Origin: Patescibacteria group bacterium
GTDB lineage: Bacteria > Patescibacteriota > Dojkabacteria > J137
Length of the DNA: 64,000 nucleotides
Assembly (NCBI GenBank): GCA_016861265.1
Contig: BOLA01000001.1
Span: 1,023,745 to 1,087,744, forward strand
Direction: 5' to 3'
Below, piece by piece: positions 1-14,264 of this stretch; the first letter of the stretch is position 1, and each line of letters starts with the position of its first letter. Position numbers and translations under genes: made by a program. The notes below the pieces were generated by a model, which was not told the origin of the DNA, ran no database searches, and was given only the letters and a program-made list of their open reading frames with translations.

Positions 1-612
1 TTTAGACCAATCTGCATATTTTTCTTTTAAATCTTCTAAATTTGGTATTCCATATTTCATTCTCAAGTTATCTAGTCGAACTTTTCTATTAGGATCATAT
101 TTAGAAATTCTCTCTGAAATCATCTCATACGGATCAAACGCAGGATATTTAGTATGGAATTTATCGGCATAAGTAACCAGTTCTTCTTCAACTGTTACAG
201 GAACATAATCTTTAATCTCAACTTCTAAATTTTCTCTTTCAATATCCTCTTTGGTAAGACCTGTCGCTGTATGAACTTCGCAAAATCTGGCATACTCTTC
301 TCCGAAGCCTTCTGATCTAACAATATTTCCACCGACAAAAGCATGTTGTAGTGGAATGAGTTTTGATGAAGTATTAAGTTCATCATCGTAACAAGGGTAC
401 ATACCAATATCATGCAATAAAGCACCGGCTTCAAGGAGATCACGATTAACTTTAATACCTTTAGTTTCTTCTAAAGTATCTGCTAATCTGACAGCTATTT
501 GTCTAACAATATCAGAATGTGTCCAGACCAATTCCAAATACAGCTCAGGAAAATTACCTTGTTTATGCTTTTGATGTAATTCTTTAATTTTTTGTTGTAG
601 TTCAGCGTTCAT
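1..612 (-). CDS. HD/HDIG-domain metal-dependent phosphohydrolase (C-terminus runs off window edge)
   Basis: ATG at 610-612 (minus); the frame stays open to position 1; translation contains ...LEAGALLHDIGMYP..., an HDIG-type motif. Missing from the ORF track because no stop lies inside the window. The start is followed 17 nt downstream by the GT2 stop, so it is the last gene of the operon. Confidence 0.55.
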   Translation of the reverse strand, partial: MNAELQQKIKELHQKHKQGNFPELYLELVWTHSDIVRQIAVRLADTLEETKGIKVNRDLLEAGALLHDIGMYPCYDDELNTSSKLIPLQHAFVGGNIVRSEGFGEEYARFCEVHTATGLTKEDIERENLEVEIKDYVPVTVEEELVTYADKFHTKYPAFDPYEMISERISKYDPNRKVRLDNLRMKYGIPNLEDLKEKYADWSK

Positions 613-628
613 TTTTTATAAATAAAAA

Positions 629-1531
629 TTATTTAGTTGAATTAATTGAATTCCAGCTACCGCCTTGAAATTCAGGAATAGTGGATTCGCTATTTTCAGT
701 TATGATTTTACTTAATATATCTTTAAAGTAGAAAAATATTTCTTTTTCAATATTTTCATCCTTTAATTGGTCTACTACTTGGTTAATTATACTATTCTGA
801 TCAATTTTATTCTTTCTTCTACTGTTATAAACCTCCTCGAACTCAGGAAATTTTGCCATGATTTGTAAATATCCTTGATCGAATCTAGTTTCTTGTCGTA
901 AAAAGTCACCCCAACTTAGAGGTGGTTTATAAGCTACAATCGATGTTAAGAGAACTTTTACAGCCTCCCATCCAAACTTTTTAGCAACATTTAGTGTTAA
1001 CCAATTATCTTCAGAATGTATATCTTCGGGATAAATAATATTCAGATCACTTTTAAATGCTAAACATCTGCCTATAGGTATAACTCTTCCTCTTGCTAAC
1101 CTATATAATTCTTGACTTCTGAGGGTTTTATATAAAAGTGTTGTTTTATCTATGGACTCATATGTTGGGACATCTAATGCACCAATCAGTTTTATTAAAG
1201 GATTTTCTAATTCGTTAATTAATAATGCTATAGTATTTTCCTTAATTCTACAATCAGAATCAATTTGCATAATTATCTCTCCCTGGCTTTCTTTGATTCC
1301 TTTATTTAAAGCTTTTGTCTTGCCAGATGTTTTCAGTTTTATAAGTTTAAAGTTGTTTAGCTTCTCATGGATAAGATATTCTTCAACTATCTTTACTGTG
1401 TTATCAATTGATCCATTCTCTAAAATTAAAACCTCATATTCAATATCTAAAATAGAGTTTTGTATATCTTTCAGTAAATTTATGATATTTTTATGTTCAT
1501 TGTGAGCTGGGATTAGAATACTAAGTTTCAT
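629..1531 (-). CDS. family-2 glycosyltransferase (soluble, GT-A fold)
   Basis: N-terminus LSILIPAHNEHKNI...LILENGSIDNT...IDSDC carries the GT2 DxD-type motifs. No TM segments. Its start overlaps the GT9 stop (1528-1531). Confidence 0.7.
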   Translation of the reverse strand: MKLSILIPAHNEHKNIINLLKDIQNSILDIEYEVLILENGSIDNTVKIVEEYLIHEKLNNFKLIKLKTSGKTKALNKGIKESQGEIIMQIDSDCRIKENTIALLINELENPLIKLIGALDVPTYESIDKTTLLYKTLRSQELYRLARGRVIPIGRCLAFKSDLNIIYPEDIHSEDNWLTLNVAKKFGWEAVKVLLTSIVAYKPPLSWGDFLRQETRFDQGYLQIMAKFPEFEEVYNSRRKNKIDQNSIINQVVDQLKDENIEKEIFFYFKDILSKIITENSESTIPEFQGGSWNSINSTK

Positions 1532-2724
1532 TTTATAAATTTTGTAATATGTTGAATAATGATTTTTTCATTTATATTAAACACCCATTCATTTTTTCCT
1601 TTAATCTTTTCATCTATCTCATCTCTTCTAAGGGACATATTATTTTTTGTTAAATACTTAGCCAATTTAGTCGCAATTGGAATGACATTTGATTTCCCAG
1701 TGCTCCATTTCCCAAAATCATGTCTACTATACAATATGAAGACTTTAGGTAATTGATTAGTTGTTGAATTTTTACTCATAGCTGCAAGATGGGAAAACCC
1801 TGTGTCATTACCTATAACAAATTTGCATCTTGAGAAAATGTAGGACAAGATTTCAAAATCTTCAGTATCAATTAGAATAATGTCTTTGTGTTTAGTTAAT
1901 AATTTTTTTACTTTAAACCACTCTTCAGGAGATTCTTCTTTCCAATTTGCTATTAAAAAGCACCTTGATCGACTAAGCTTTCGTTTTAATGTTTTATATA
2001 AATTCAAGAACTTAAGAGTTCCGTACCTTTTTTCAATCTCGCCTGCTTGACTGATAATAGCAATAGATTCAATATTGTCCGAAAGTTTAACCTTATATTT
2101 ATTTTCAACTTTTTCTTCAATACTTTTATCATATTGTAAATTAAATATTGGAAGTGAATCATTTGGATTTGATTTTAATCTAACTCCTAATTCTCGCTCA
2201 AAAGTGAGGAAATATCTTGCTGGTCTAGAAATATATTCAATACTATGTTTTTTATTTATAAACTTGGGATATATATAATTCTCACTATTGAAAATTACTG
2301 GATAATTTTCTAAAGTAAATGGGTCATCATCAGTTACTAAAGCAACTTTTGTTCCTGAATTATGTTTATCTTTAAAATAGTCAATTGCGTTATTCACTAT
2401 TTCTGCACTTTCCAATATATCTATATGTCTTAATAAATTAGAAAATGTACTGTCAAGTATATATTTAGGCAAATTGTTTGGTCTTGTAATCAATAAAAAT
2501 TCGTGAGTAGCCTGAATTACAGATAAGAATAGAAAGGAATCACCTAATGGTTTCCAGTACATACTAAATACAACTTCTTCACATTCAAGTAATCCTTTTT
2601 TTAATGTCTCATTAATTTCATATCCAGTAATGGCCTCTCCATACTTCATTTGAGGTCTATCATAATATAGCTCTACACGAGCAGTTTCAGTTGTAATATA
2701 TTTCTTGTAGGTTAAATTTTTCAT
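1528..2724 (-). CDS. family-9 glycosyltransferase (ADP-heptose:LPS heptosyltransferase-like)
   Basis: C-terminal motif KFVIGNDTGFSHLAAMSK matches the GT9 (WaaC/WaaF/WaaQ) signature GND(S/T)GxxHLAAA. Overlaps its neighbours on both sides by 4 nt. Confidence 0.65.
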   Translation of the reverse strand: MKNLTYKKYITTETARVELYYDRPQMKYGEAITGYEINETLKKGLLECEEVVFSMYWKPLGDSFLFLSVIQATHEFLLITRPNNLPKYILDSTFSNLLRHIDILESAEIVNNAIDYFKDKHNSGTKVALVTDDDPFTLENYPVIFNSENYIYPKFINKKHSIEYISRPARYFLTFERELGVRLKSNPNDSLPIFNLQYDKSIEEKVENKYKVKLSDNIESIAIISQAGEIEKRYGTLKFLNLYKTLKRKLSRSRCFLIANWKEESPEEWFKVKKLLTKHKDIILIDTEDFEILSYIFSRCKFVIGNDTGFSHLAAMSKNSTTNQLPKVFILYSRHDFGKWSTGKSNVIPIATKLAKYLTKNNMSLRRDEIDEKIKGKNEWVFNINEKIIIQHITKFIK

Positions 2725-3323
2725 ACTCTTTTAAACCATAATAGACTTATTTTTTTCTTAGCTCCTGGCTTATAGTGTTCAGGAGGATTTACATAATTAA
2801 TCTCAATATTTGGGTGTTCCTGCCCGTAAATCCCATATTCCATCAATAACTCATTCAATTTATCCAAACCAGCTCTTGGATAAGCAACGTAAACAGAATT
2901 ACCTTCATTATATTCCCAAGTCAAAAAAGCATTAATGTTTCTTGCAACAATTGCAATATCCGTTGAAAATGGCGGATCAAATATAACAGTATTAAATTGA
3001 TGTTGAAATCTTGCAATTAATTCTTTTGTATTTGCATCACTCGCATGGCTATGAAGTCCTCTTTGCAAATCATATAGCCAAAATTGTCCCTCTGGATATA
3101 AATTGACTAATCGTCCATCTGTATCAAATACAAATACATCTCTTCTTCCACTATTTATTAATGCCTCTCCAACTGAAGGAGTACAAAGACATGCTGTACA
3201 GCCCGCAGCTAAATCGGCTAATTGCCTAATAGTATTATTATCAAAAAAATATTGTTCATTGCTCTGATTCTCTTCAATTTTATAGATATCTAAATCATCT
3301 TTTCCTGAGTTCATAATCCACAC
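2721..3323 (-). CDS. class I SAM-dependent methyltransferase with (D/N)PPF amino-methyltransferase motif
   Basis: VFDTDGRL (motif I-like) and VIFDPPFS (motif IV DPPF, as in N6-adenine, glutamine and lysine N-methyltransferases of the N6AMT/EFM5-like family). 200 aa. Confidence 0.5.
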   Translation of the reverse strand: MWIMNSGKDDLDIYKIEENQSNEQYFFDNNTIRQLADLAAGCTACLCTPSVGEALINSGRRDVFVFDTDGRLVNLYPEGQFWLYDLQRGLHSHASDANTKELIARFQHQFNTVIFDPPFSTDIAIVARNINAFLTWEYNEGNSVYVAYPRAGLDKLNELLMEYGIYGQEHPNIEINYVNPPEHYKPGAKKKISLLWFKRV

Positions 3324-5851
3324 TCTCTAATAAATTGTTTATATCTTTCTTCAAAACTTAATCCACGATTAAAGATGAAAAAAGAACTAATATCCACTCG
3401 AGAAGTCTTTAATTTCTCAAGAGTTTTTAATGATAGAAATTCGTAATCAGTGTTTAATCCATATACTCGTCTTAAGTATAGTTCTTGATCTAATTTTGAT
3501 ACAAAATATAATATTGCCCTTACTTCAGAAGTTCGCTCAGGGGAAGAAGCTATAAGACGAGTTAATTCAGCTTCTTTATCCTCATCCCAATAATCTGAGA
3601 TAAATCTCCCAAGTTGGTGTCCTAATATTGCTACTCCTTTGTAAATATCTCTTTTTTCAAAATCTAAAGCATATTGAAAAATTCTGGCATACTCTTCTAA
3701 TGTAATTTCTGTATCTTCGGATTGAAGAAACCTTTTTTCAAAGTTTCCAGTTCTGACCATAACTTTACTTTTATCTGGAATATCAAACTGGTGAAACATC
3801 CTTTGAATTATATCTGTATTAAAAATATCTGCGAACCATGCAAGCCTATTCAAATTTTTCATATATATGTTAATTGCATTATCGTCATCCAATTCGATAA
3901 CATTATCAAAATCAATTACGTATACTTTTCCATCTTCTCCCCTTATCAAATTACGTGGTGCTAAATTTCTAAAGAATATACCTCTTTCAACTAAAGCATC
4001 TTCTATTGCTGTAGTTGTTCTCTGTAATTCTCTATCAAGATATCCTTTATTTTGATCTAATACAGCGGTTTCATAATCAATCCCCATATATTTAGAGATA
4101 AAATAAAAGTCTCCTTCACTCCGTACAATTGCAATCTCTGGAACAACCCCAACATTTTCAAGAGATGCATTATTCAATAATTCTGCAATTCGATAATAAT
4201 TATCTAAATATGTTCTATCATTCCTAAGACTAACTGCTACGTAAGGAACACCTTCGCAAAACATAAGTTTAGGTGAGGTCCCAGATATATCTAATACCAT
4301 TGCACTGCTTGTAATTGGAATGCTTTTTCTAAAAAATTGGGCGAAAGTTCTTCCCCTCAAATCTCTTTCTAGTCCTTTGGCTAACGGATTAGAATTTGTA
4401 TTTACTATTTCCCCTTCTTCGGGTAATTCCAATTTATCTTTATCATTAAAACTTATGGTAGTAGGTATATTTACTTTCTCAGAATCTTCTTGCACTCCGT
4501 CTGTTCCTGAAAGAATCTCATGGATATGTCTTCCTTTCTGTAATTCTTCTAGTAAGTATTCTTCACTAAAATCTCCTCTTCTTATTACATCTACAGCTAT
4601 ATCAATGTAATAATTCTTAATAGTTTCTGAAATATAAGGTGAAGTACTAAGCACCCCTTCAATTCTATTTTTCATAATAGTTATTTCATTCAGTTCTGGA
4701 TTATCTTTAATTGCCGGACCAATTTTAGGTGAAAATTTGGAGTCAACATTTTGTTGCAATTCTCTATAAAATCCGTTTAATTGGTTAGTTCTTTCCGGTG
4801 AAGATTTACCTTCATTCTCAACATACACGCCAAGAACTTCCATAGCATTGCCTCTTGAGAAAATTCTAGGAGTTACATAAATATCGGTTATTCCATACCC
4901 ATCTTGTAATACCCACGTCATTGCAGGCCCTTTGATTAATCTTAAATATGTTCTTGCTTCGTTACTCATATTAGGTTTTAATGCAACAATAAGAGTATAA
5001 AGTTGTTTATAACTTTCATCTGAAAGATGGAACTTAGATAACCATTCTCTTGCAATATTTACTCTTTCTCTTCGAGATAATAAGTTTCCATCAGTCGAAG
5101 TAATTAAATCTTCAAGTTCGGAATAAATAGAATAAGCTTTGAATTGAATTTCATTTAAAAGTATAAAAATTTCCCCACTTAAATCTTCAGGTTCAAATGC
5201 TTTTGATACTGAAATTTGAAGACCCATAGGAAAAGAATTTCCTTTAAATCTGACGGAATATCTATCATTTAAGCTATATCCGTTTATCACTTCATTAACA
5301 ACACATTCCAATATTTCAGTTGCGGCTACTCCATATGGATCATTATGGTCATAAAGATCTTGTCCTTCTAATTCTTCTAAATGTGCTAATGAATAACCAG
5401 ATCTATCTTCTACAAATATATGTGCATGTAGCTGGTCTATTGTTTGCACCTTAACTTCTGTGCCATCTGGTAGATATTTATAAGGTATTGATTGGCAATC
5501 TCTCTGTTGATTGATTGAGATTGTAGGGTATCCATAACCTAACTGCCTATGCATACTATTTGCTAGACTAAATAAAACCCTCATAAACTCTTTACCTTCT
5601 TGTAGATCAAGATCAGTGAGTTGTGAAGCTTTGCTATTTTTAAGTATTAACATACCATCAGCTGGGTTCTCGACATATTGAGTTTTTTTTCTAACAAATT
5701 CTATTTCACCAAGAATATCTGAATGAAGGTGAAGTACACTGTCGTCAAAAATAGTCCCTTCTGATGGGCTTGTAATTTCATTTTGTGGTATTACCCTTTT
5801 TATGACTGTTAAGTCATCATCAAACTTTACATCCATATTTTTTAATTCCAA
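3311..5851 (-). CDS. large protein with C-terminal eukaryotic-like/choline-aminoglycoside kinase fold (probably non-canonical catalytic loop); N-terminal ~550 aa unassigned
   Basis: C-terminal ...GIFFRNLAPRNLIRGEDGKVYVIDFDNVIELDDDN aligns to Brenner's HNDLxxxNIL plus the IDFEY/DFG region of ChoK/APH/ePK-like kinases, but with Asn in place of the catalytic Asp. Overlaps MTase and decarboxylase ORFs. Confidence 0.45.
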   Translation of the reverse strand: MELKNMDVKFDDDLTVIKRVIPQNEITSPSEGTIFDDSVLHLHSDILGEIEFVRKKTQYVENPADGMLILKNSKASQLTDLDLQEGKEFMRVLFSLANSMHRQLGYGYPTISINQQRDCQSIPYKYLPDGTEVKVQTIDQLHAHIFVEDRSGYSLAHLEELEGQDLYDHNDPYGVAATEILECVVNEVINGYSLNDRYSVRFKGNSFPMGLQISVSKAFEPEDLSGEIFILLNEIQFKAYSIYSELEDLITSTDGNLLSRRERVNIAREWLSKFHLSDESYKQLYTLIVALKPNMSNEARTYLRLIKGPAMTWVLQDGYGITDIYVTPRIFSRGNAMEVLGVYVENEGKSSPERTNQLNGFYRELQQNVDSKFSPKIGPAIKDNPELNEITIMKNRIEGVLSTSPYISETIKNYYIDIAVDVIRRGDFSEEYLLEELQKGRHIHEILSGTDGVQEDSEKVNIPTTISFNDKDKLELPEEGEIVNTNSNPLAKGLERDLRGRTFAQFFRKSIPITSSAMVLDISGTSPKLMFCEGVPYVAVSLRNDRTYLDNYYRIAELLNNASLENVGVVPEIAIVRSEGDFYFISKYMGIDYETAVLDQNKGYLDRELQRTTTAIEDALVERGIFFRNLAPRNLIRGEDGKVYVIDFDNVIELDDDNAINIYMKNLNRLAWFADIFNTDIIQRMFHQFDIPDKSKVMVRTGNFEKRFLQSEDTEITLEEYARIFQYALDFEKRDIYKGVAILGHQLGRFISDYWDEDKEAELTRLIASSPERTSEVRAILYFVSKLDQELYLRRVYGLNTDYEFLSLKTLEKLKTSRVDISSFFIFNRGLSFEERYKQFIRECGL

Positions 5852-7500
5852 CCAGCAGGTCCAGTACTTCTAATTAAGTTTTGTTGCTCTTTACCATCAA
5901 AGATAATTTCATTAATTTCTTTATGAATATCTTTGTGATAATGTTTTGCTTTTTCAAATAAATAAGATAAGGAATTGCTCAAACTCTCCTCTGTATACAA
6001 TGGATTTCCTACAGTAATACTCATTACAAAATATCTTTCTGATGAAAGATTTAATCCTATGGTATCCCCAATATCATGTAATTTGAATTCATCTAGGCAA
6101 ACATCACCTGATTCGTACAGCTCTTGATTAATTTTATGTGTATATTTATCGATACAACTTTTAATTGATAGCTTTTGTTTATCAGTTAATTCCTCTTGAT
6201 CTACAATGGACTTTACATCTTTTGGATAATATACAAATGCCATTCTATAAAAATCCATTTCGTGAAAGTTTGTGAAGTATCTGCTATCTTCGATCTTATT
6301 CCAAACAAATTGGGCATCTTCATCTCTTTTCTCAACTACTTCACCTAAATAATCCTTACCCAATGCTTTAATCATTAACCAAATCTTTAAAGATTCAAAA
6401 CCTCTTGATCCAAAGAATGGTGTTATATATCCAAGATCCCATGATTCACCATTTCTTACCTGTTCAGGATATCGAGTGAACTTTACTAAATTATCTCTTT
6501 GTTTAAACATCACATAGCTAGAAGGATAAGTTACAAACATTCCCTTATGTGGATCTAAGGCTACAGAATCCGCCATTTCAATTCCTTTCAAGTCTCTTCC
6601 CTTCAATTTATTTGAGAACAATAAGCTTCCTCCATGACAAGCATCTACATGTAGCCATGTATTATATTTCTGGCAGATTTGAGCAATCTTTTCGATATTA
6701 TCTATACACGCTGTTCTACAATTACCTGCAACTGCTACAACCATAAAAACATCATTTGATCCAACGTGTTCTTTGAGGATATTTTCTAAATCGTTCAAAT
6801 TTGTAGTAAAGTCTGCATTTGATTCTGCTGAAATTATATTGGCGTTTCCCAATCCTAAATGGTGCATTGCCGAGTTATATGAATAGTGGCTTATTTTTCC
6901 TGAGAGAACAATCTTCGGTGTAACGGATAAGGAGGTTAATCCTTTTTCCTTAATTTCGGGATATTTTTGATTTAAAGCTGACATTATTGCTATATGGTTT
7001 GACATATGACCACCTGTAGTCCACATTCCTCCAACTTCTGATAAAGATTTTATCTCACTAGTAGGTTTAAAGTCATATCCAATCAACTCTCTAAGCCATT
7101 CAATAAGTTGAATTTCTATGAAAGTAGCAATTGTTGCACTTCTATCAAAAGCAATAAGATTTTGATTAAGAAACTTTGAAAAAATCTCACCTGCCATTGC
7201 GTGCTTAGAATTTGCGGAATCTGGGAATGCAATATAATTCAAGTCAGATTGAGATATAGAATATTCACCTATCTCTTGTAGTGTGTCCAGCACCGTATCA
7301 TCATCGATTCCATTTGCTGGTAAAGTATCTTTTAATTCCTTCAGGAAAGCTTCAGGTGTTTTATACTTTAATACCTTATTATCTCGAATTTCGCCACTAA
7401 AGAACTTAAGTCCAAGATCTATTATTTTATTAAAAAATTCCTGTTCACTTTCTGATTTCCCAGATATAAAATTGTTAGTTATTTTTTTGTTGCTTTTCAT
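5842..7500 (-). CDS. PLP-dependent group II amino-acid decarboxylase
   Basis: SGGHMSNHIAIMSAL, HVDACHGGS and the PLP-lysine motif DPHKGMFV. The 552-aa size fits the DABA/tyrosine/glutamate decarboxylase family. Confidence 0.75.
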   Translation of the reverse strand: MKSNKKITNNFISGKSESEQEFFNKIIDLGLKFFSGEIRDNKVLKYKTPEAFLKELKDTLPANGIDDDTVLDTLQEIGEYSISQSDLNYIAFPDSANSKHAMAGEIFSKFLNQNLIAFDRSATIATFIEIQLIEWLRELIGYDFKPTSEIKSLSEVGGMWTTGGHMSNHIAIMSALNQKYPEIKEKGLTSLSVTPKIVLSGKISHYSYNSAMHHLGLGNANIISAESNADFTTNLNDLENILKEHVGSNDVFMVVAVAGNCRTACIDNIEKIAQICQKYNTWLHVDACHGGSLLFSNKLKGRDLKGIEMADSVALDPHKGMFVTYPSSYVMFKQRDNLVKFTRYPEQVRNGESWDLGYITPFFGSRGFESLKIWLMIKALGKDYLGEVVEKRDEDAQFVWNKIEDSRYFTNFHEMDFYRMAFVYYPKDVKSIVDQEELTDKQKLSIKSCIDKYTHKINQELYESGDVCLDEFKLHDIGDTIGLNLSSERYFVMSITVGNPLYTEESLSNSLSYLFEKAKHYHKDIHKEINEIIFDGKEQQNLIRSTGPAGWN

Positions 7501-7708
7501 TCATAATTATTTAAAATTAGTGTAAGCTTCACTTCCGACTATGTTAAATTTATCAAAGAGATACAATACTTTGATAAATTTATATAAGAACATCTGTAAG
7601 TCATTATTCACTTAGATTTCACCGATATTTTATTCTAGGGATTATAACACTAAAAGTATTGACAGCCTTTGTATTGCGATACAAATCTTATATATTTGCT
7701 AAAGAAGA

Positions 7709-8129
7709 GTTTCAACTCCATCCTCATCTACAAACTTCCATTTCTTATTACTGCTTGAAGTCTTCTTGTAATTCTTAAAGAATTTCTGATTATCTTTAAC
7801 CATGTAAACTGTAAAGTAAGTTTTGCCTTCTGAATCTTTTAATTCTCGTCCTATAAGTTCACCATTTCGTTTCATTTTGCTAACGGTAGCAGAATGTAAT
7901 CCAAATTCACTTTTAAATTGCCAACTAGCAATCCATAGATCATGATTCTTAATAATTTCAGCAGGAATTATTCCTTCTTTTACATGTCTTCTACAATCAA
8001 CACATTGAATACCATCTAAGTTCCACCAAGATTCACTACCTTTAAGACCTCTAGAACAAAGATTGCATGAATAACCAGATTCTTCAATTTGGAACTCCTG
8101 AGGAAAGATTGAAAATATTATCTGGTATT
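7709..8129 (-). pseudogene. Zn-ribbon-containing ORF (~138 codons stop-to-stop) lacking an ATG/GTG/TTG start
   Basis: Minus-strand frame reads ...SGYSCNLCSRGLKGSESWWNLDGIQCVDCRRHVKEG... (CxxC...CxxC) continuing to ...KKWKFVDEDGVETLL*. The first in-frame Met gives only about 58 aa, which is why the track omits it. Co-directional with the HEPN gene and immediately downstream of it. Confidence 0.25.
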
Positions 8130-8169
8130 CAAACTAGATTTGAATTAACTCAGAGACAACTAATGAAGG

Positions 8170-8934
8170 TCACATCCTAGGGGTATTTTCTTGATGAGTC
8201 TCGATCAAGAAAATTGACATGGAGCCACTCAAATACACAGCTAATTCGGCATGACGAGGTTTAGGTTTTATCTTTTTAATCCCTTTTCCATGAGCATCAC
8301 CGAACTTATTTCTCATTGTACCTAAACCATTCACAACCGCTGAACATCCCCCTAATATTTGCTTAAACAAATCCTCACTGTGTTGATCTGGACTAAGTTT
8401 TAGTTCGTGAGCTACATTTTTATACAAAACTGATAAGTCAGTATTATCTGTATACGGCATACTTCTTTCATCCAAGATGAACTTGCAAGTACTTTCAAGA
8501 ATTGTCCTTGCGGTTGTAATTGCACCCTCAGGATCACTAACCTTTCTTTCTAAAGCTTTCTGTATTTCTTTATGTATTGAATTTGCTCCATATTTCTTTA
8601 ATCTTTCTTCAAAAGTATCGTCTGTAAAGATGCCATTAATTCCAGGTACTTCAAGTACATTTAAGAGATCTTCAAATGATTCCCAAATATACTCCCTTCT
8701 TTCAGCATAAGTATCAAATTTTTTTTTGATAAATTGCCAGAACTGACCTAAATCTCTTTTAGTTCTAACAAAATCAGGTAGTTTTTCGGAGACTGAAGTA
8801 TTATCTAAAAAGTACTTTCTCAGATATGTGTACTCTTGTGCGTCAGATTCTATACCAGTTGCTCTAGAAACCAGTATATCCTGTAAGTATTCTGCTTTTT
8901 CGTAATCATTTTGTAAGTGACTGAGTGAAGGCAT
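8170..8934 (-). CDS. AbiJ-like abortive-infection protein with C-terminal HEPN (Abi_C) domain
   Basis: C-terminal LGTMRNKFGDAHGKG matches the HEPN Rx4-6H motif (R-NKFGDA-H). Size (254 aa) and architecture resemble AbiJ N-terminal domain plus Abi_C. Confidence 0.5.
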   Translation of the reverse strand: MPSLSHLQNDYEKAEYLQDILVSRATGIESDAQEYTYLRKYFLDNTSVSEKLPDFVRTKRDLGQFWQFIKKKFDTYAERREYIWESFEDLLNVLEVPGINGIFTDDTFEERLKKYGANSIHKEIQKALERKVSDPEGAITTARTILESTCKFILDERSMPYTDNTDLSVLYKNVAHELKLSPDQHSEDLFKQILGGCSAVVNGLGTMRNKFGDAHGKGIKKIKPKPRHAELAVYLSGSMSIFLIETHQENTPRM

Positions 8935-9183
8935 GATTAAAACTTTAATATCTCTGTAATTATAGCAATAGAAACGGAATTAGAACGAAAGTTACTAACT
9001 GAGAATCTACAACACCCACAATAAAAAAGCTTAGAACCAAGGATATGAATTTAAAAATTGAATATGGCTATTTTAGAGCAAAAACAACAATTTTAAGAGA
9101 TTTACGAATTACTGCAAGCCAATGTACAACACCATTCGAGGCTTCAAAGGTAGGTAGACGGGTCTTGCGAAACCATTTGAAAA

Positions 9184-9274
9184 TGGCGGAGAGGACAGGA
9201 TTCGAACCTGCGACCCGATTGCTCGAGTACAGTCTTTCCAGGACTGCGCACTAGACCAACTATGCGACCTCTCC
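9184..9274 (-). tRNA. tRNA-Ser (anticodon GGA), long variable arm, encoded CCA
   Basis: Reverse complement GGAGAGG...CAGTC-CTGGAAA-GACTG...long variable arm...CAGGTTCGAATCCTG...CCTCTCC-G-CCA. Anticodon stem 5 bp with a 7-nt loop, U33, anticodon GGA, discriminator G73. Confidence 0.85.
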
Positions 9275-9285
9275 AATAGGATTAA

Positions 9286-9357
9286 AGGTGTTGGCGGGAA
9301 TCGAACCCGCGAATAGCAGTTTTGCAGACTGCCGCCTTACCACTTGGCCACAACACC
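9286..9357 (-). tRNA. tRNA-Cys (anticodon GCA), no encoded CCA
   Basis: Reverse complement GGTGTTG-TGGCCAAGTGGTAAGGCG-GCAGT-CTGCAAA-ACTGC-TATTC-GCGGGTTCGATTCCCGC-CAACACC-T. Acceptor and T stems are perfect; anticodon GCA; discriminator U73, as expected for Cys. Confidence 0.85.
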
Positions 9358-9504
9358 ATAAATACGGTAGATGCAAAAGCAATTATAGCAGAATACCCAG
9401 GCTTTTAATGTTAATTGCTATTAACTTTTTATCTCCTTTACCAAGTAGATAGTTTTTTAATTACTCCCTCATTAGTGTTAGAATTTTTTGTATAACAAAT
9501 TTAT

Positions 9505-10020
9505 ATGGCTACACCAAGAATTAAAGTAATAGTAAACGACAAAATGCAGAATAACTATAGCTACTATAGAACAGAACCTATTGGAGAAAATTTTGATGAA
9601 AGGTTCAAGCCGGGTCTAACTCCAAAGCAGATGTTAGAGTTAGGAGTTTTTGGTGGAAAGTACATGACTGATTGTAAGAATGAATTCCCTGAAGATTGGT
9701 ATAAAAATGCAAAGCTATGTTCCGAAAGACACGATCCCGAACTGAATTTTTTTAAGGTAAATGCTAGCCAACCCTTAAAAGTCTGGATTCAAAAAGGCTG
9801 GATCTACCCTGAAGATCCTCGTGGCTGGTTCCAGTGGTACTGCAGATACTATATGGGAAGAAGAATTCCTATAGAAGACGATAGACAAATAAGGCGTTGG
9901 CTTGCAATTAAAAGACATATTGCACAGGTTCAAAAAAATTGTGTATCAGGAGACTTAACCTGTAGGCATAAGCAAAGACAGGCAATCCTGCATTGGGCTT
10001 ACGATAGTCGAAAAATTTAA
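9505..10020 (+). CDS. conserved hypothetical protein (Trp/Tyr/Arg-rich motif GWFQWYCRYYMGRR)
   Basis: 171-aa ORF with ATG start, coding-like composition and no recognisable family motif. Confidence 0.5.
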   Translation: MATPRIKVIVNDKMQNNYSYYRTEPIGENFDERFKPGLTPKQMLELGVFGGKYMTDCKNEFPEDWYKNAKLCSERHDPELNFFKVNASQPLKVWIQKGWIYPEDPRGWFQWYCRYYMGRRIPIEDDRQIRRWLAIKRHIAQVQKNCVSGDLTCRHKQRQAILHWAYDSRKI

Positions 10021-10067
10021 CTTAATTCTTTGTTATATAATTACCTATCAATTTAGTAAATACTTAT

Positions 10068-11072
10068 ATGGATAATATAAACGCAATTCTGGCTAATGCA
10101 AAATCAATATTAGTTACTTCTCACTTACAGCCCGACCCAGATGCGATATGTTCATCCTTAGGAATGTATGATTATATCCTTAAATCTTTTCCAAATGCTA
10201 AGACCGACATTTACTTAAATGGCGAAAAATTACAGGCATACTCTACCTTAAAAAATTACGATGATATTAAGTGGATTAAGGATGTTTCTGAAGTAGTGAA
10301 TAACTACGACACATTGGTTTTTACAGATGGAAGCCATTTATCGCGTTTTACAAACTCCGAGGAATCCATAGATTTATCAAGGTTTAAAACAATATGTATT
10401 GATCATCATAAGAACGAACAATCAAATTGGGACTCCGTAATACTGGAATCTCAGGAACCATCTGCAGCTCAAATTATATATAAATACTTTTTTAGGGGGA
10501 CTAACTTAATAGAATCCAATATTGCCGAAGTTCTTTTAACAGGAATTCTAAGCGATACGGGAATGCTTAGATTTGTAAGACCATCTGCACTTTCAACATT
10601 CGATTACGTCAAAGAACTGATCGAAATAAGCGACCTTGATTTAAAAATTATTGAAGATAAGTACTTTAATCTAACCGAATCCGATATGGATATTATTAGT
10701 GTACTAACAACCAATATTACAAAGGTTGATGATTATAAACATCCGTTTATTTATTCCTACTTACCTATGGAGTATTTAAATAAGTATTCGTTAAATCTAA
10801 CAAAGCAAGGTAAGTCAAAATTCCAAATGTTCTTTGCAACTTCAATAGGTAAGTATAAGTGGAGTTTTATTGCTACCCCAAACAGTGATTCGGTAATGAA
10901 TATATCATTAAGATCCTCACCAGGAGTGGAAAATGTTAGGTTAATTGGTCAACAATTTGGTGGCGGTGGTCACGACTTAGCCAGCGGGGGTGAATTCCCA
11001 ATCGGACCTGGGCAAGACAGTGCGCAGGTATGTTTAAAGATTGTGGAAAAAATTAAGGGGTTAAATTTATAA
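10068..11072 (+). CDS. DHH/DHHA1-family phosphoesterase (NrnA-like nanoRNase / pAp phosphatase)
   Basis: DHH motif ICIDHHKN and DHHA1 motif FGGGGHDLASGG. Confidence 0.75.
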   Translation: MDNINAILANAKSILVTSHLQPDPDAICSSLGMYDYILKSFPNAKTDIYLNGEKLQAYSTLKNYDDIKWIKDVSEVVNNYDTLVFTDGSHLSRFTNSEESIDLSRFKTICIDHHKNEQSNWDSVILESQEPSAAQIIYKYFFRGTNLIESNIAEVLLTGILSDTGMLRFVRPSALSTFDYVKELIEISDLDLKIIEDKYFNLTESDMDIISVLTTNITKVDDYKHPFIYSYLPMEYLNKYSLNLTKQGKSKFQMFFATSIGKYKWSFIATPNSDSVMNISLRSSPGVENVRLIGQQFGGGGHDLASGGEFPIGPGQDSAQVCLKIVEKIKGLNL

Positions 11073-11828: not shown

Positions 11829-12039
11829 GATCGCCTAGAGAAGTGTCTGCAAAATTTATTTTCTTCTAAAAATTACAAATACTTGTGAAAATACTATAGG
11901 TTTTTACAATTTTGTAAGAAAATTTGTGAAAACATATTGCATTAATATTTTTTATGCTCTACAATAACCAATATTATTTTCACAGAAATATATCTGTTTA
12001 ATGACAAGAAAGATTCAAACAAAATTGAATTGCGTTATT

Positions 12040-12232
12040 TATCCGCTTATTGCGGATGGTTCTTGTCGGATAGCTTAACTTTCGTTATTTCCGACAAGCC
12101 ACTATAAGAAGTGCAAGTGTCGGAAGAATTGATTACCTAATTAAAGACGTTGATATTCCTTATGGTAGCTTGTCGGGTGTAATGCCAGTTCGGCTTCACT
12201 CAGCTCGTTGACAATTCTTAAGGAGGTGTCTT
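12040..12232 (+). promoter_or_regulatory. structured 5' leader of the ABC exporter with alternative hairpins and a 25-codon uORF (12001-12078)
   Basis: tccgc-ttatt-gcgga hairpin. cttgtcgga(12062-70)/tccgacaag(12092-12100) form a 9-bp stem, and agcttgtcggg (~12169) could alternatively pair with the second arm. The uORF ATG 12001...TAA 12076 (MTRKIQTKLNCVIYPLIADGSCRIA) ends inside the first stem arm. A perfect SD AAGGAGG lies 9 nt before the GTG start. Confidence 0.3.
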
Positions 12233-14119
12233 GTGTCTAAGCATTACCGCCGTTCCCTGTACAAGGGTCAGTTCAAGCAGAACGCTCTTAGGAGTTTTCT
12301 GGCAATCCTTTGGGAGTACAGGAGTTTTATGTACTTTCCAGCATTGATGGTGTTGCTGCTCGAAGCGGCTCAAATGGGTGCAAGGGTTTTTATTTCTGAA
12401 ATCCTAGCACGAATTGAGCTGGCCGATTGGAGTGCACTAGGCGTTTTGTTGCTGAGCATGTTTTTGTATAACATGCTTACTCTTGCAATCGATGCAAAGA
12501 TGGTTCGCGTTGTAATTGAGCGAGTCGGCTACGACTTTGCATTTGCATACGAAAACAAGGTTCTAAGGCACGTAGCAAGACTGGGACACACATTCAATTC
12601 ATCTTTTCCTATCTCTGTAACCCTGGATAGGATAGCTAAAATCGAACGTGTGTCGGATCTAGTTGAACAGGGTTTCTGGACTTTGTTCAACAATGTTTTT
12701 CAGGGCATAATCAGTTTGATTGTGCTAAGCATTTATCTGCCTGCTGCCGTACCTGTGGTGCTTGTGGTGTTCTTTCTCTTCATAAGGTTTAACAACATTA
12801 TGATTGAGAAACAGGCTATTGTACGCAAACGCCGCAAGGATCGAGGTGAAGATAAGGCTGAAATTCGAATGCGTCTAGTTGCAGCCAATACGACACTGCT
12901 GTCCAATGGCGCATTGGAACGCACTGAGCAGACAGTCTTTAAAAGCTCCTCTCACCTAAAGCGTGTTGGAATTCTGGAGCTGATGCATGTACTTCGTGGA
13001 AATGGAATTATCCGCGATGTGCTGCTCTACTTTGGCCGTTTTGCGGTACTTGCCTTTGCGGTTAGTATGGCTCAGGCTAAGGTAATCGATATTCCCCGCC
13101 TTGTGCTGGTCTACACCGTTTCCGAAACCATGTTCATTGGAATGTGGGGTGTGGTTCGCTTTGTGTACTCGTTCATGTACGAAAGTCCATCAATTCTCAA
13201 GATTGATGAACTCATGCAGATTACACCGACAGTAGTGGAACCTGTAAATCCTGTATCAATTCCTGCTGGTCCGTTAGGGTTTGCATTCAACGATGTAAAC
13301 TTCACGTATCGTGGAATTGAGATTCAAGGTAAAAAGCAGGTTGATCCATACTTTGGCGAAAATCTAGCTCGAGCAAACCATTTAAGGCAACAACTCGGTG
13401 TTCACCCCTATCAGGTAAAAAAGGCTGAAGAACAGCCTTTGCATTTGTGCGGAGTGAACTTAAACATTATGCCAGGGCAGAAGGTTGCCTTGGTAGGACA
13501 TAGTGGCGCAGGTAAGAGCACACTGTCACTGCTGCTTTCTAAGCTTCAGGTGCCTGACTGCGGTCAACTGCTTGTTAACGGAGTGCCGATCGAGCAACTC
13601 GATGGCTACGAACTGCGAAGCAGAATTGCCGTCGTGCCACAAGGTTCGAACGTAGACATATTCAATGACACCCTGTTGCATAACATTACACTTGGCGACG
13701 AGCGTTTTGAAGTGGCAGATGTTATTGAAGCCCTAAAGGTAGCGGAGCTTTGGAACACTGTTCTGGAGTGGCCGCTAATGCTCTACGAAACAATCGGTGA
13801 ACGCGGCAGAACTTTATCGGGAGGTCAGCAGCAGCGGGTTGCAATCGCAAGAGCAGCAATACGTAAGCCTGATCTCATTATTCTAGATGAAGCTACAAGC
13901 GCACTCGATACCGAAACCGAACGTCTGGTTCAGGCTTCGCTTAATCGATTGCTGCAAGGTAGAACAGCAGTGATTATCGCTCATAGACTTTCTACAATCA
14001 AAGACGCGGACATGATTGTAGTAATGCGCGATGGTTCAATCGGCGAAATGGGAACTTGGGACGAGCTTGTACATACGGAAGGAGATTTTGCAAAGCTCGT
14101 TAAGGCACAAACTCTTTAA
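12233..14119 (+). CDS. ABC exporter, fused permease + ATPase (GTG start); GC content far above surroundings
   Basis: Six-TM N-terminal half. NBD with Walker A GHSGAGKST, signature LSGGQQQRVAIARA and Walker B IILDEATSALD. A counted ~100-nt sample is about 52% GC, against about 30% in the flanks. Confidence 0.85.
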   Translation: MSKHYRRSLYKGQFKQNALRSFLAILWEYRSFMYFPALMVLLLEAAQMGARVFISEILARIELADWSALGVLLLSMFLYNMLTLAIDAKMVRVVIERVGYDFAFAYENKVLRHVARLGHTFNSSFPISVTLDRIAKIERVSDLVEQGFWTLFNNVFQGIISLIVLSIYLPAAVPVVLVVFFLFIRFNNIMIEKQAIVRKRRKDRGEDKAEIRMRLVAANTTLLSNGALERTEQTVFKSSSHLKRVGILELMHVLRGNGIIRDVLLYFGRFAVLAFAVSMAQAKVIDIPRLVLVYTVSETMFIGMWGVVRFVYSFMYESPSILKIDELMQITPTVVEPVNPVSIPAGPLGFAFNDVNFTYRGIEIQGKKQVDPYFGENLARANHLRQQLGVHPYQVKKAEEQPLHLCGVNLNIMPGQKVALVGHSGAGKSTLSLLLSKLQVPDCGQLLVNGVPIEQLDGYELRSRIAVVPQGSNVDIFNDTLLHNITLGDERFEVADVIEALKVAELWNTVLEWPLMLYETIGERGRTLSGGQQQRVAIARAAIRKPDLIILDEATSALDTETERLVQASLNRLLQGRTAVIIAHRLSTIKDADMIVVMRDGSIGEMGTWDELVHTEGDFAKLVKAQTL

Positions 14120-14135
14120 GAGTTGCAATAAGCAA

Positions 14136-14182
14136 TAAAAAAGGGGCGAATCTTAGATTAAAAACCTTTGATTCGTCCCCGT
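14136..14182 (-). terminator. hairpin with U-tract on the minus strand (terminator of the 14265-14558 gene; also sits just after the ABC stop)
   Basis: aaaaaa-ggggcgaatc...gattcgtcccc. The minus strand reads stem-loop then TTTTTT. Confidence 0.45.
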
Positions 14183-14264
14183 AACCCACAATAATTATAC
14201 CATAATAGGCGGTAATTCTACGTCTACTTGGGAATATATAAAAAGTTGCTACTTAAAATGGATG

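Follow-up and report, generated by a model that had tools for sequence, protein, structure and literature searches.

In the ADP-heptose route, the fused kinase/adenylyltransferase HldE works together with the phosphatase GmhB and the glycosyltransferase family 9 (GT9) enzyme WaaC, and in the Kennedy and Lic pathways a kinase step is followed by that of a nucleotidyltransferase. The amidation of the Campylobacter jejuni capsule reportedly relies on the L-serine-phosphate decarboxylase Cj1436, together with Cj1437, the ligase Cj1438 and the phosphatase Cj1435. Here, a six-gene block of a Patescibacteria group bacterium is compared with these systems. It occupies positions 1-7500 of a stretch of 64,000 nucleotides (nt) of contig BOLA01000001.1, referred to below as the window. 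Its second gene encodes a protein of 846 amino acids (aa) that is a fusion of two enzymes, a predicted nucleoside monophosphate (NMP) transferase of the HIT superfamily and an atypical protein kinase-like (PKL) domain, neither of which belongs to any Pfam or NCBIfam model. The six open reading frames (ORFs), five whole and one cut by the window edge, lie on the minus strand where a first-pass annotation had placed them:

5842-7500, minus strand: decarboxylase dependent on pyridoxal 5'-phosphate (PLP), 552 aa
3311-5851, minus strand: fusion protein, 846 aa from a TTG codon or 841 aa from the ATG at 5836
4682-5836, minus strand: N-terminal half of the fusion protein, 385 residues, HIT fold of the GalT/Apa2 branch (predicted)
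3311-4681, minus strand: C-terminal half of the fusion protein, atypical PKL domain that has a helical extension at its N-terminus and a conserved helical region at its C-terminus
2721-3323, minus strand: methyltransferase, 200 aa from GTG, or 197 aa from ATG (2721-3314)
1528-2724, minus strand: GT9-like protein, 398 aa
629-1531, minus strand: glycosyltransferase family 2 (GT2) protein, 300 aa
1-612, minus strand: HD protein, starting at 612 and running off the window edge, with 204 of 216 codons present

The ADP-heptose route (HldE, GmhB and WaaC/WaaF; also TibC/AAH) follows a similar logic, combining a kinase~nucleotidyltransferase, a phosphohydrolase and a GT9-type glycosyltransferase of the GT-B fold. 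The likeness extends to the GNDTGxxHLA and LGD motifs of the glycosyltransferase and to the HIT domain, whose nearest relatives include the adenylyl-transferring enzymes Apa2 and ADP-glucose phosphorylase. However, the upstream enzymes are non-homologous (PKL versus ribokinase-like, HIT versus cytidylyltransferase-like, and HD versus HAD), and a PLP decarboxylase, which is obligatory in the present module, is absent from the ADP-heptose route. Moreover, the GT9 match is weak, and the hosts here are monoderm members of the candidate phyla radiation (CPR) that lack lipopolysaccharide (LPS). The module occurs in CPR and TM6 bacteria, and CPR bacteria are unlikely to offer an LPS acceptor.

The Kennedy and Lic pathways, which lead to CDP-ethanolamine, CDP-choline and phosphocholine decoration by way of serine decarboxylase, ChoK/LicA, CCT/ECT/LicC, PEAMT and LicD, possibly share the order of chemical steps with the module, and a PKL-superfamily kinase is common to both. 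On the other hand, the nucleotidyltransferase is of the LicC/CCT type there and of the HIT or DNA polymerase β (Polβ) type here, the module decarboxylase lies on the side of group II that contains the 2,4-diaminobutyrate (DABA), glutamate (GAD) and cysteine-sulfinate (CSAD) decarboxylases, and neither the canonical Lys nor the canonical Asp is retained in the PKL domain. Pfam and NCBIfam searches with all operon genes gave no Choline_kinase or APH match, for the fusion protein or any other, and none to LicC-type proteins, LicD or LicB, which agrees with the view of the first-pass annotation that a phosphocholine-type route, if present, would not be the canonical Lic pathway.

NahK, a PKL-fold N-acetylhexosamine 1-kinase, and LnpC, a GalT-type HIT uridylyltransferase, of the galacto-N-biose/lacto-N-biose (GNB/LNB) pathway have the same two folds as the halves of the 846-aa protein, but no sequence relation was detectable (no APH or GalT Pfam matches), and in the window the two folds are fused. 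Their partners are a phosphorylase and an epimerase, whereas those of the module are a PLP decarboxylase and an HD hydrolase. Finally, C. jejuni capsule amidation is said to resemble the module in that the amine phosphate produced by a PLP decarboxylase is put on a sugar and a dedicated phosphatase then removes the phosphate. The folds differ (another fold-type I decarboxylase family, an ATP-grasp ligase and an HAD phosphatase), and neither a nucleotidyltransferase nor a PKL enzyme is reported there.

The decarboxylase and the two-enzyme fusion protein

Two other assemblies served as a reference for the reading frames, namely a Logan contig (L001; 97.5 % DNA identity to the window) and an NCBI contig of a metagenome-assembled genome (MAG) labelled 'uncultured Candidatus Saccharibacteria' (L002; 82.6 % DNA identity, with proteins 81-96 % identical to those of the window). 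The ATG starts are those picked by the gene callers in both. An exact look-up of the 846-aa TTG form found no match, and the recorded product begins at Met6 and has 841 aa; the ATG at 5836 is likely the start of the fusion protein, in a frame that can be extended to the TTG at 5851. Residue numbers below follow the 846-aa form. Overlaps had been described at every junction of the block up to a 17-nt gap. An ATGA indeed links the 841-aa protein to the methyltransferase (overlap of 4 nt), the methyltransferase to the GT9-like gene and the latter to the GT2 gene, but with ATG starts the decarboxylase and the 841-aa protein are separated by a 5-nt gap (the 10-nt overlap arises only with the TTG start), and the gap between the GT2 and HD genes measures 16 nt. 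Since L001 and L002 keep the same frames and the same fusion protein, the overlaps are not an artefact of sequencing frameshifts, a concern that the first-pass annotation had raised.

The gene at 5842-7500, the first of the operon, encodes a group II PLP-dependent amino-acid decarboxylase. It matches Pfam PF00282 with an E-value of 6e-46 (157 bits versus a cut-off of 27), residues 56-422 covering positions 8-372 of the 375 in the profile. It carries HVDA at residue 284 and DPHK at residue 316; we take the latter to be the PLP-lysine motif, and the Asp of the former presumably contacts the pyridine nitrogen. The protein stays below the NCBIfam equivalog cut-offs for PanP (144 of 606 bits), DABA decarboxylase (107 of 900) and MfnA (95 of 299), and its nearest solved relatives are the DABA, glutamate, cysteine-sulfinate, aspartate and GADL1 decarboxylases. 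This does not favor the ethanolamine- or choline-like amine that had been envisaged as the product. The module decarboxylases form a separate clade and are the best-conserved partner, being 50-62 % identical across module versions, compared with 24-35 % for the PKL and HIT proteins.

Searches with the fusion protein gave only sub-threshold matches in Pfam and NCBIfam (Pkinase, E 3e-3; HIT, E 0.03, over the HxH strand), and the whole-protein query had no match among PDB sequences. A word-indexed search of 5.8 G clusters returned only an identical protein and the L002 orthologue. By contrast, an exhaustive HMMER search of 1.84 G cluster representatives yielded 65 homologues, each of which, except the L002 orthologue, covers either residues ~8-376 or ~390-836, that is, one half only. 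The stand-alone homologues are ~370 aa long for the N half and ~440 aa long for the C half. A structure prediction of the 846-aa protein had been recommended at the outset; both halves were modelled confidently with AlphaFold2 (pLDDT 90.7 for the N half and 92.6 for the C half).

In its model, the N-terminal half adopts a two-lobed alpha+beta HIT fold. Its structural neighbours, with their similarity scores, are as follows:

Yeast Ap4A phosphorylase Apa2: 11.5 (193 residues)
DUF4931: 11.0
CWF19-like proteins: about 10.5
ADP-glucose phosphorylase: 10.1
GalT: 9.4-10.1
CDP-diacylglycerol pyrophosphatase: 9.5

At the sequence level, matches to HIT and Ap4A phosphorylase entries of the PDB are weak but consistent (E 0.1-0.2). 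Invariant residues include Q136, T137, H142 and H144 (in LHAHIF) and S332, G334 and N335 (in SRGNAME). Across the family, the first motif reads GTE(L/V)KVQTIxxLHxHxF (alignment A1), in which H142 and H144 are invariant in 24 sequences and the third position is F or Y. GalT, Apa2, ADP-glucose phosphorylase and CDP-diacylglycerol pyrophosphatase transfer an NMP group, or hydrolyse its bond, at a pyrophosphate linkage via a His-NMP intermediate. The modelled fold identifies the N half as a predicted NMP-transferase of the GalT/Apa2 branch of the HIT superfamily. Thus, the nucleotidyltransferase that the first-pass annotation had found lacking in this block is predicted to be present in a non-canonical form, as the N-terminal part (385 residues) of the fusion protein.

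The C-terminal half is modelled as a bilobal PKL fold. The sequence F-R-N629-L-A-P-R-N634 forms the catalytic loop and ID647FD the metal-binding motif, and the motif GH745xLGRFISD753 is invariant. Invariant residues in alignment A2 are P632, R633, N634, D647, D675, G744, H745, G748, D753 and E760; N634 and D647, the catalytic-loop Asn and the DFG-like Asp, are unchanged in 27 sequences. In the N-terminal helical extension, S408 is invariant and H442 and H444 are nearly so. A profile of the family aligns the loop and the metal Asp with HRDLKPxN...DF of CIPK23 (E 1.3e-5). The best structural neighbour is ADCK3/COQ8 of the UbiB family, which shares 10 % identity over 173 aligned residues and whose gene context, ubiquinone synthesis, is unrelated to a decarboxylase operon. 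A domain of the ChoK/APH fold had been proposed for this protein; a kinase-like nature holds at the level of the fold, but the nearest relative is ADCK3/COQ8 and the choline-kinase families, as stated above, are not matched. Profile searches assigned neither the decarboxylase nor the kinase-like protein to unrelated families. On the basis of the model, conventional kinase chemistry by this half is plausible, not assured.

The conserved core and its partners in related loci

Related loci were collected from genomes, metagenomes and exact look-ups and compared by BLASTP and clustering, and relatives in genome contigs were found with an 11-sequence alignment of closer homologues. The core genes are not scattered, but syntenic in more than 10 independent loci of different phyla. 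Genes for the decarboxylase, PKL and HIT proteins adjoin one another in a distant subfamily, in metagenome contigs, in an unclassified MAG and in Saccharibacteria, Amesbacteria and TM6; where PKL and HIT have separate genes, both always stand beside that for the decarboxylase. The main arrangements other than that of the window are the following:

Amesbacteria (L006), unclassified MAG (L004) and TM6 (L008): GT9-like, GT2, HD, HIT, decarboxylase and PKL genes
Shapirobacteria-type loci (L005, L007, L009): a gene for a ~585-aa protein instead of GT9 and GT2; MgsA_C-like and GT4 genes
Distant subfamily (L017-L020): decarboxylase, PKL, HIT, NUDIX and ~585-aa protein genes, with a divergent NodU/CmcH carbamoyltransferase gene beside them
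L011: a distant HIT member adjoining a GT9-like gene
Berkelbacteria (L024-28): Nuc_deoxyrib_tr, decarboxylase, Polβ nucleotidyltransferase and PKL genes
Archaeon (L014): decarboxylase gene followed by a Polβ-nucleotidyltransferase~PKL fusion

Gene fusions join the core activities in different pairs, namely HIT~PKL in the window, PKL~decarboxylase in P0061 (with PhyH, PHP and GT2 neighbours) and Polβ-nucleotidyltransferase~PKL in P0037. Further fusions combine HIT with a RelA/SpoT-like domain (P0039, followed by HD_4) and PKL with APH (P0059). The replacement of HIT by Polβ in Berkelbacteria and the archaeon implies that NMP transfer is the required activity. On comparative sequence grounds, the invariant set is the decarboxylase, the PKL protein and a predicted NMP-transferase of either the HIT or the Polβ type. 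It is accompanied by an HD, NUDIX or PHP hydrolase and at least one glycosyltransferase; HD genes stand beside the module in 8 loci, GT9-like genes in 6 and GT2 genes in 5. The alternation of HD, NUDIX and PHP between loci is consistent with a nucleotide-linked intermediate.

Pfam and NCBIfam profile searches upheld the family labels first given to the decarboxylase, the DPPF methyltransferase and the GT9-like, GT2 and HD proteins. The methyltransferase matches PF10237 (N6-adenineMlase; EFM5/N6AMT2-like) with an E-value of 7e-17 (62 bits versus 23.2), the match spanning only positions 1-101 of the 166 in the profile, with DPPF at residue 113; no match was found in the PDB. Among the loci compared, its gene occurs only in the version of the window, L001 and L002, and the enzyme is an accessory to the module. 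The GT9-like protein matches PF01075 partially (E 8.5e-6; 25.7 bits versus a cut-off of 22; positions 103-199 of 247) and the NCBIfam heptosyltransferase I model with an E-value of 1e-5, while profile matches to WaaC/WaaF in the PDB are weak (E 0.3-0.55) and the precomputed PF01075 match is not marked in L002 and L011. Its orthologues in the six loci, including the distant L011, are 39-51 % identical. The motifs LGDS (60-63) and GNDTGFSHLAA (305-315) contain residues invariant in all six (G61, D62, S63, G305, N306, D307, T308, G309, H312, L313 and A314; alignment A5). By analogy with WaaC, LGD presumably marks the region of the catalytic Asp in GT9 enzymes, and GNDTGxxHLA their loop for binding ADP-heptose.

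The GT2 protein matches PF00535 with an E-value of 2.4e-22 (80 bits versus a cut-off of 23.3) and has DSD, of the DxD type, at residue 91; orthologues with 36-38 % identity follow the GT9-like gene in L004, L006 and L008. The HD protein matches its Pfam family with an E-value of 3.7e-12 (47 bits versus a cut-off of 22) and falls below the cut-off of TIGR00295 (73 versus 172 bits). Its ligands H32, H67-D68, H90, H114 and D150 are invariant in 7 orthologues (alignment A6), a binuclear pattern, and its best PDB matches are the cyclic di-AMP phosphodiesterase PgpH (Lmo1466; E 1.6e-3) and PhnZ (E 0.02). Together, the binuclear pattern and these nearest relatives make a phosphodiesterase or another binuclear HD enzyme likelier than a simple trimmer. 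Hence, of the earlier description as an HD phosphohydrolase that trims a phosphate, the family assignment holds, and judging from these residues and relatives a phosphodiesterase/pyrophosphatase role is predicted to be at least as likely as the trimming.

No flippase, polymerase or priming transferase gene was found in any locus examined. Searches for a defence or phage connection with PADLOC and PHROGs gave generic fold-level matches only, and no relatives occur in viral contigs. A role in phage DNA hypermodification, or a phage origin, was rejected because viral contigs hold no relatives and the only PHROG match is a generic GT2 one. A known anti-phage defence system was also rejected, since the core has only generic PADLOC matches and the AbiJ-like gene at 8170-8934 is a neighbour. 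The gene order had not been recognised as a described system, and full-text literature searches turned up no account of such a set of genes either.

Six loci encode, next to the module, members of a conserved protein family of ~530-590 aa, which takes the place of GT9 and GT2 in three cases:

L007 7499-9259
L005 7463-9190
L008 1446-3047
L009 991-2718
L017 8831-10576
L020 8978-10756

It has no Pfam or PDB match. Its motifs SGTSANEA and S-A-T-K-H-Q-D-G-G resemble those of a fold-type I PLP enzyme with a Schiff-base lysine, for which it is a candidate. Other genes near the module also have unusual features. Upstream of it, L004 contains a 666-aa ORF (1090-3090) in which GlutR_N and Shikimate_DH are fused to tRNA-synt_2, with Amidohydro_2, AAA_18 kinase and NUDIX genes as neighbours. 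We take the first part to be glutamyl-tRNA-reductase-like and tRNA-synt_2 to be the core of a class II aminoacyl-tRNA synthetase; this unusual architecture could reduce an activated amino acid. In both L002 (792-6778) and L024 (9499-9984 and 18926-21653), the module is flanked by genes for a Nuc_deoxyrib_tr protein and for an HisKA_7TM histidine kinase and its accompanying response regulator. The two kinases are 25 % identical over ~780 residues, and these neighbours may be regulatory or pathway partners. In L009, the HIT-like gene is split into two ORFs (3391-4227 and 4282-4581), reflecting either a frameshift or stop introduced by sequencing error or a pseudogene.

Possible products of the module

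The fusions and the exchange of HIT for Polβ imply that a single small molecule is the target of all three activities, namely decarboxylation, the ATP-dependent PKL step and the transfer of NMP. Our preferred reading, held tentatively and with somewhat less than an even chance, is that the core activates an amino-acid-derived amine unit as a nucleotide conjugate and hands it to glycosyltransferases. From the observed folds, conserved residues, fusions and synteny, we infer the following steps. An amino acid, or a phosphorylated derivative, would be decarboxylated to an amine-bearing unit, which the PKL domain would phosphorylate with ATP. Through a covalent His144-NMP, the HIT domain would then convert the phosphate ester into a donor linked to a nucleoside diphosphate, probably ADP; the hints at ADP are the GT9 motifs and the nearest HIT neighbours, which transfer adenylyl groups. 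Attachment of the donor unit and one or more sugars to a cytoplasmic acceptor would fall to the GT9-like and GT2 enzymes. The HD protein (NUDIX or PHP elsewhere) would act on an intermediate or by-product, in which it would cleave a phosphodiester or pyrophosphate bond. In the version of the window, L001 and L002, tailoring would comprise N-methylation of the amine by the DPPF enzyme, an agmatinase-type ureohydrolase, a second GT2, a CmcI-like O-methyltransferase and NUDIX. A general logic of amine formation, phosphotransfer, N-methylation, glycosyl transfer and phosphohydrolysis is the most economical reading of the locus, and its outline of an amine, a phosphoryl or NMP transfer and a glycosyl transfer is well supported.

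Several observations weigh against this scheme. The HIT motif is HxHxF, rather than the HxHxH of HIT or the HxHxQ of GalT/Apa proteins. In the PKL half, no Lys is kept at the VAIK-equivalent column, and the HRD Asp is replaced by Asn629 in the window protein and most close relatives, a change that the pseudokinase HER3 presumably shares (HRNLAARN). Asp is retained at this position in the distant subfamily, and Asp and Asn alternate among otherwise well-conserved members. Moreover, ADCK3 is an ATPase, so the PKL half may be no conventional kinase. The relatives of the decarboxylase use Glu, Asp, cysteine sulfinate or DABA instead of serine, and the GT9 label depends on a weak, partial Pfam match. 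The agmatinase, and genes for arginyl-tRNA synthetase (ArgRS) or arginine deiminase (ADI) near the decarboxylase in four other lineages, fall outside the scheme. Membrane, export or priming genes are missing beside the module in every locus examined, so a glycan target is unproven. For the glycan decoration proposed in the first-pass annotation, a surface target gains no support here, as all six window proteins are devoid of hydrophobic stretches that could form a transmembrane (TM) helix and the loci lack flippase, polymerase and priming transferase genes.

These arginine-related neighbours would find a place if the product were a diffusible specialised metabolite, such as a glycosylated, nucleotide-linked or phosphorylated amine, possibly arginine-derived or arginine-mimicking (for instance an antimetabolite resembling an aminoacyl-adenylate), with no envelope structure involved. 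We consider this possible, though on the unlikely side. Decarboxylases of this clade (42-46 % identical) are found together with a distant homologue of the PKL protein in islands of Bacillus velezensis and Kitasatospora that resemble biosynthetic gene clusters; the inserted island of B. velezensis CP178718 (1.428-1.442 Mb) has AMP-binding, carrier-protein, GT2 and HAD genes, and that of Kitasatospora has two radical-SAM genes and GT4, sulfotransferase, APS kinase and methyltransferase genes. An ArgRS gene lies directly downstream of the decarboxylase gene in Bacillus, where it appears to be an extra copy (L021 11717-13450); that of Kitasatospora (L022 1794-3554) is ~6.4 kb upstream and on the other strand. 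ArgRS within such loci is typical of self-resistance or tRNA-dependent steps. ArgRS or ADI genes also occur within 10 kb in the archaeon (ArgRS, L014 1600-3534) and Berkelbacteria (ArgRS, L024 811-2667), but these two ArgRS genes may be housekeeping copies, and the window holds neither an ArgRS nor an ADI gene. An agmatinase passing TIGR01230 inside the operon, carbamoyltransferase and acetyltransferase genes beside the distant subfamily, the solubility of all six window proteins and the Nuc_deoxyrib_tr genes (a family to which BlsM and MilB presumably belong) flanking the module in L002 and L024 fit a metabolite as well. On the other hand, secondary-metabolite clusters are rare in the tiny genomes of CPR and TM6 members, the module has no linked exporter, no known compound matches, and the literature searches came back empty.

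A more radical proposal, which we regard as unlikely, is that the decarboxylase, the PKL protein and the NMP-transferase embody a new biosynthetic principle that makes a glycosylated aminoalkyl-nucleotide, with the PKL protein acting as something other than a kinase. If true, this principle would be common to CPR bacteria, TM6, DPANN-like archaea and cryptic clusters of Bacillus and Kitasatospora. An amine unit would be joined via a phosphate to AMP or another NMP and glycosylated afterwards, and the PKL domain, with Asn629 and no VAIK Lys, would catalyse another ATP-dependent reaction, such as AMPylation or ligation as in SelO and SidJ. The product could then be an aminoacyl-adenylate mimic aimed at ArgRS, or a new nucleotide-derived surface or signalling molecule.

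A non-canonical Lic/Kennedy route, in which serine or phosphoserine would yield ethanolamine or its phosphate to be phosphorylated, nucleotide-activated, N-methylated in the direction of choline and added as a phospho-amine to a surface glycan made by the GT9-like and GT2 enzymes, is distinctly unlikely. The enzyme classes do match the order decarboxylase, kinase, nucleotidyltransferase and N-methyltransferase, the DPPF methyltransferase lies within the operon, and the PKL~decarboxylase and nucleotidyltransferase~PKL fusions suggest consecutive steps on one small molecule. Sugar O-methyltransferase-like genes and strain-variable content past the NUDIX gene resemble surface-glycan loci, and the operon sits at a variable spot beside tRNA genes and an AbiJ-like gene. 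However, several points speak against it besides the missing choline-kinase-type and Lic-type matches: only the version shared by the window, L001 and L002 has the methyltransferase; the closest company of the decarboxylase is enzymes for acidic amino acids and DABA; TM segments are missing, as are a flippase, a polymerase and a priming transferase; and the agmatinase would have no role. Last, salvage activation of a sugar, with PKL as an anomeric sugar 1-kinase (as in NahK, AmgK and maltokinase), HIT as a GalT-type sugar-1-phosphate nucleotidyltransferase and the decarboxylase supplying a side substituent, is highly improbable: the pairing of a PKL-fold kinase with a GalT-type HIT enzyme is established for NahK/LnpC, the HIT fold is of the GalT/ADP-glucose phosphorylase type, glycosyltransferases are always nearby and scavenging suits CPR metabolism, but the best-conserved, most tightly linked and PKL-fused decarboxylase is hard to square with a side role, and the Polβ enzymes that replace HIT normally nucleotidylate hydroxyls and not sugar phosphates.

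Chromosomal setting and biological meaning

The block had been described as a six-gene operon. Its genes do form one conserved unit, but the operon is longer, and the window contains the first six of at least 10 genes. Directly after the HD gene (216 aa), both L001 (whole operon at 398-10773) and L002 continue with genes for an agmatinase, a second GT2, a CmcI-like methyltransferase (CmcI/Methyltransf_24 type) and a NUDIX protein, giving 10 genes common to both. The agmatinase, an arginase-family protein scoring above the equivalog cut-off of TIGR01230 (201 versus 174 bits), is found only in the version of the module in the window, L001 and L002. Beyond NUDIX the two contigs diverge, L002 encoding DUF4915 and L001 a further Methyltransf_24 along with a Polβ/DUF4037-like protein and a thiamine diphosphate-dependent enzyme. 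Upstream of the operon, the window contains the following features:

7501-7698, minus strand: ~200 nt of non-coding DNA upstream of the decarboxylase, with no ORF of 40 aa or more on this strand
8170-8934, minus strand: AbiJ-like Abi_C gene (Pfam Abi_C, E 7e-21; PADLOC AbiJ, E 3e-22)
9184-9357, minus strand: tRNA-Ser(GGA) and tRNA-Cys(GCA) genes

The segment 7501-7698 is likely a putative promoter region of the operon, with a weak consensus match at 7547-7519. With 35 promoter-like sites found and 48 expected, scanning this AT-rich DNA for promoter and terminator consensus sequences was uninformative. Similarity between the window and L002 stops at 7477, and the window, L001 and L002 all differ upstream of the decarboxylase. 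This chromosomal spot looks like a variable insertion spot, because synteny with L002 breaks exactly at the decarboxylase start. A Prochlorococcus-type island, which 31 % GC and the tRNA genes alongside had suggested, was rejected, since the locus with 81-96 % identical proteins carries the Saccharibacteria label and the remaining relatives belong to CPR or TM6; the window very probably derives from a CPR bacterium related to that of L002. A short frame lies between the AbiJ-like gene and the operon (7699-8070, minus strand); it ends at 7699, encodes 58 aa from its first ATG, is open further upstream and shows Cys-x2-Cys pairs by eye. Elsewhere in the window, positions 12000-14200 have a GC fraction of 0.43-0.47, compared with ~0.31 in other parts, and include an ORF of 628 aa (12233-14119) whose C-terminal part only (from ~372) matches MsbA/HepA-type ABC exporters. 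This segment was possibly acquired horizontally, or the ORF possibly has a divergent N-terminal domain.

All components of the module fall in known superfamilies and its pathway logic has precedents, so it is not a categorically new system. Nevertheless, the HIT-like and atypical PKL proteins represent families without Pfam, NCBIfam or PDB sequence matches, which form a rare and tight module with the decarboxylase clade, and the PKL domain, with Asn at the catalytic-base position, may be a non-canonical member of its superfamily. Occurrences of the module are concentrated among minimal-genome organisms that live on or inside other cells. Genes kept in minimal symbiont genomes usually matter for symbiosis, such as surface recognition, host manipulation or competition. 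With four to six soluble enzymes, the set is tractable, and B. velezensis and Kitasatospora offer a cultivable route to its chemistry.

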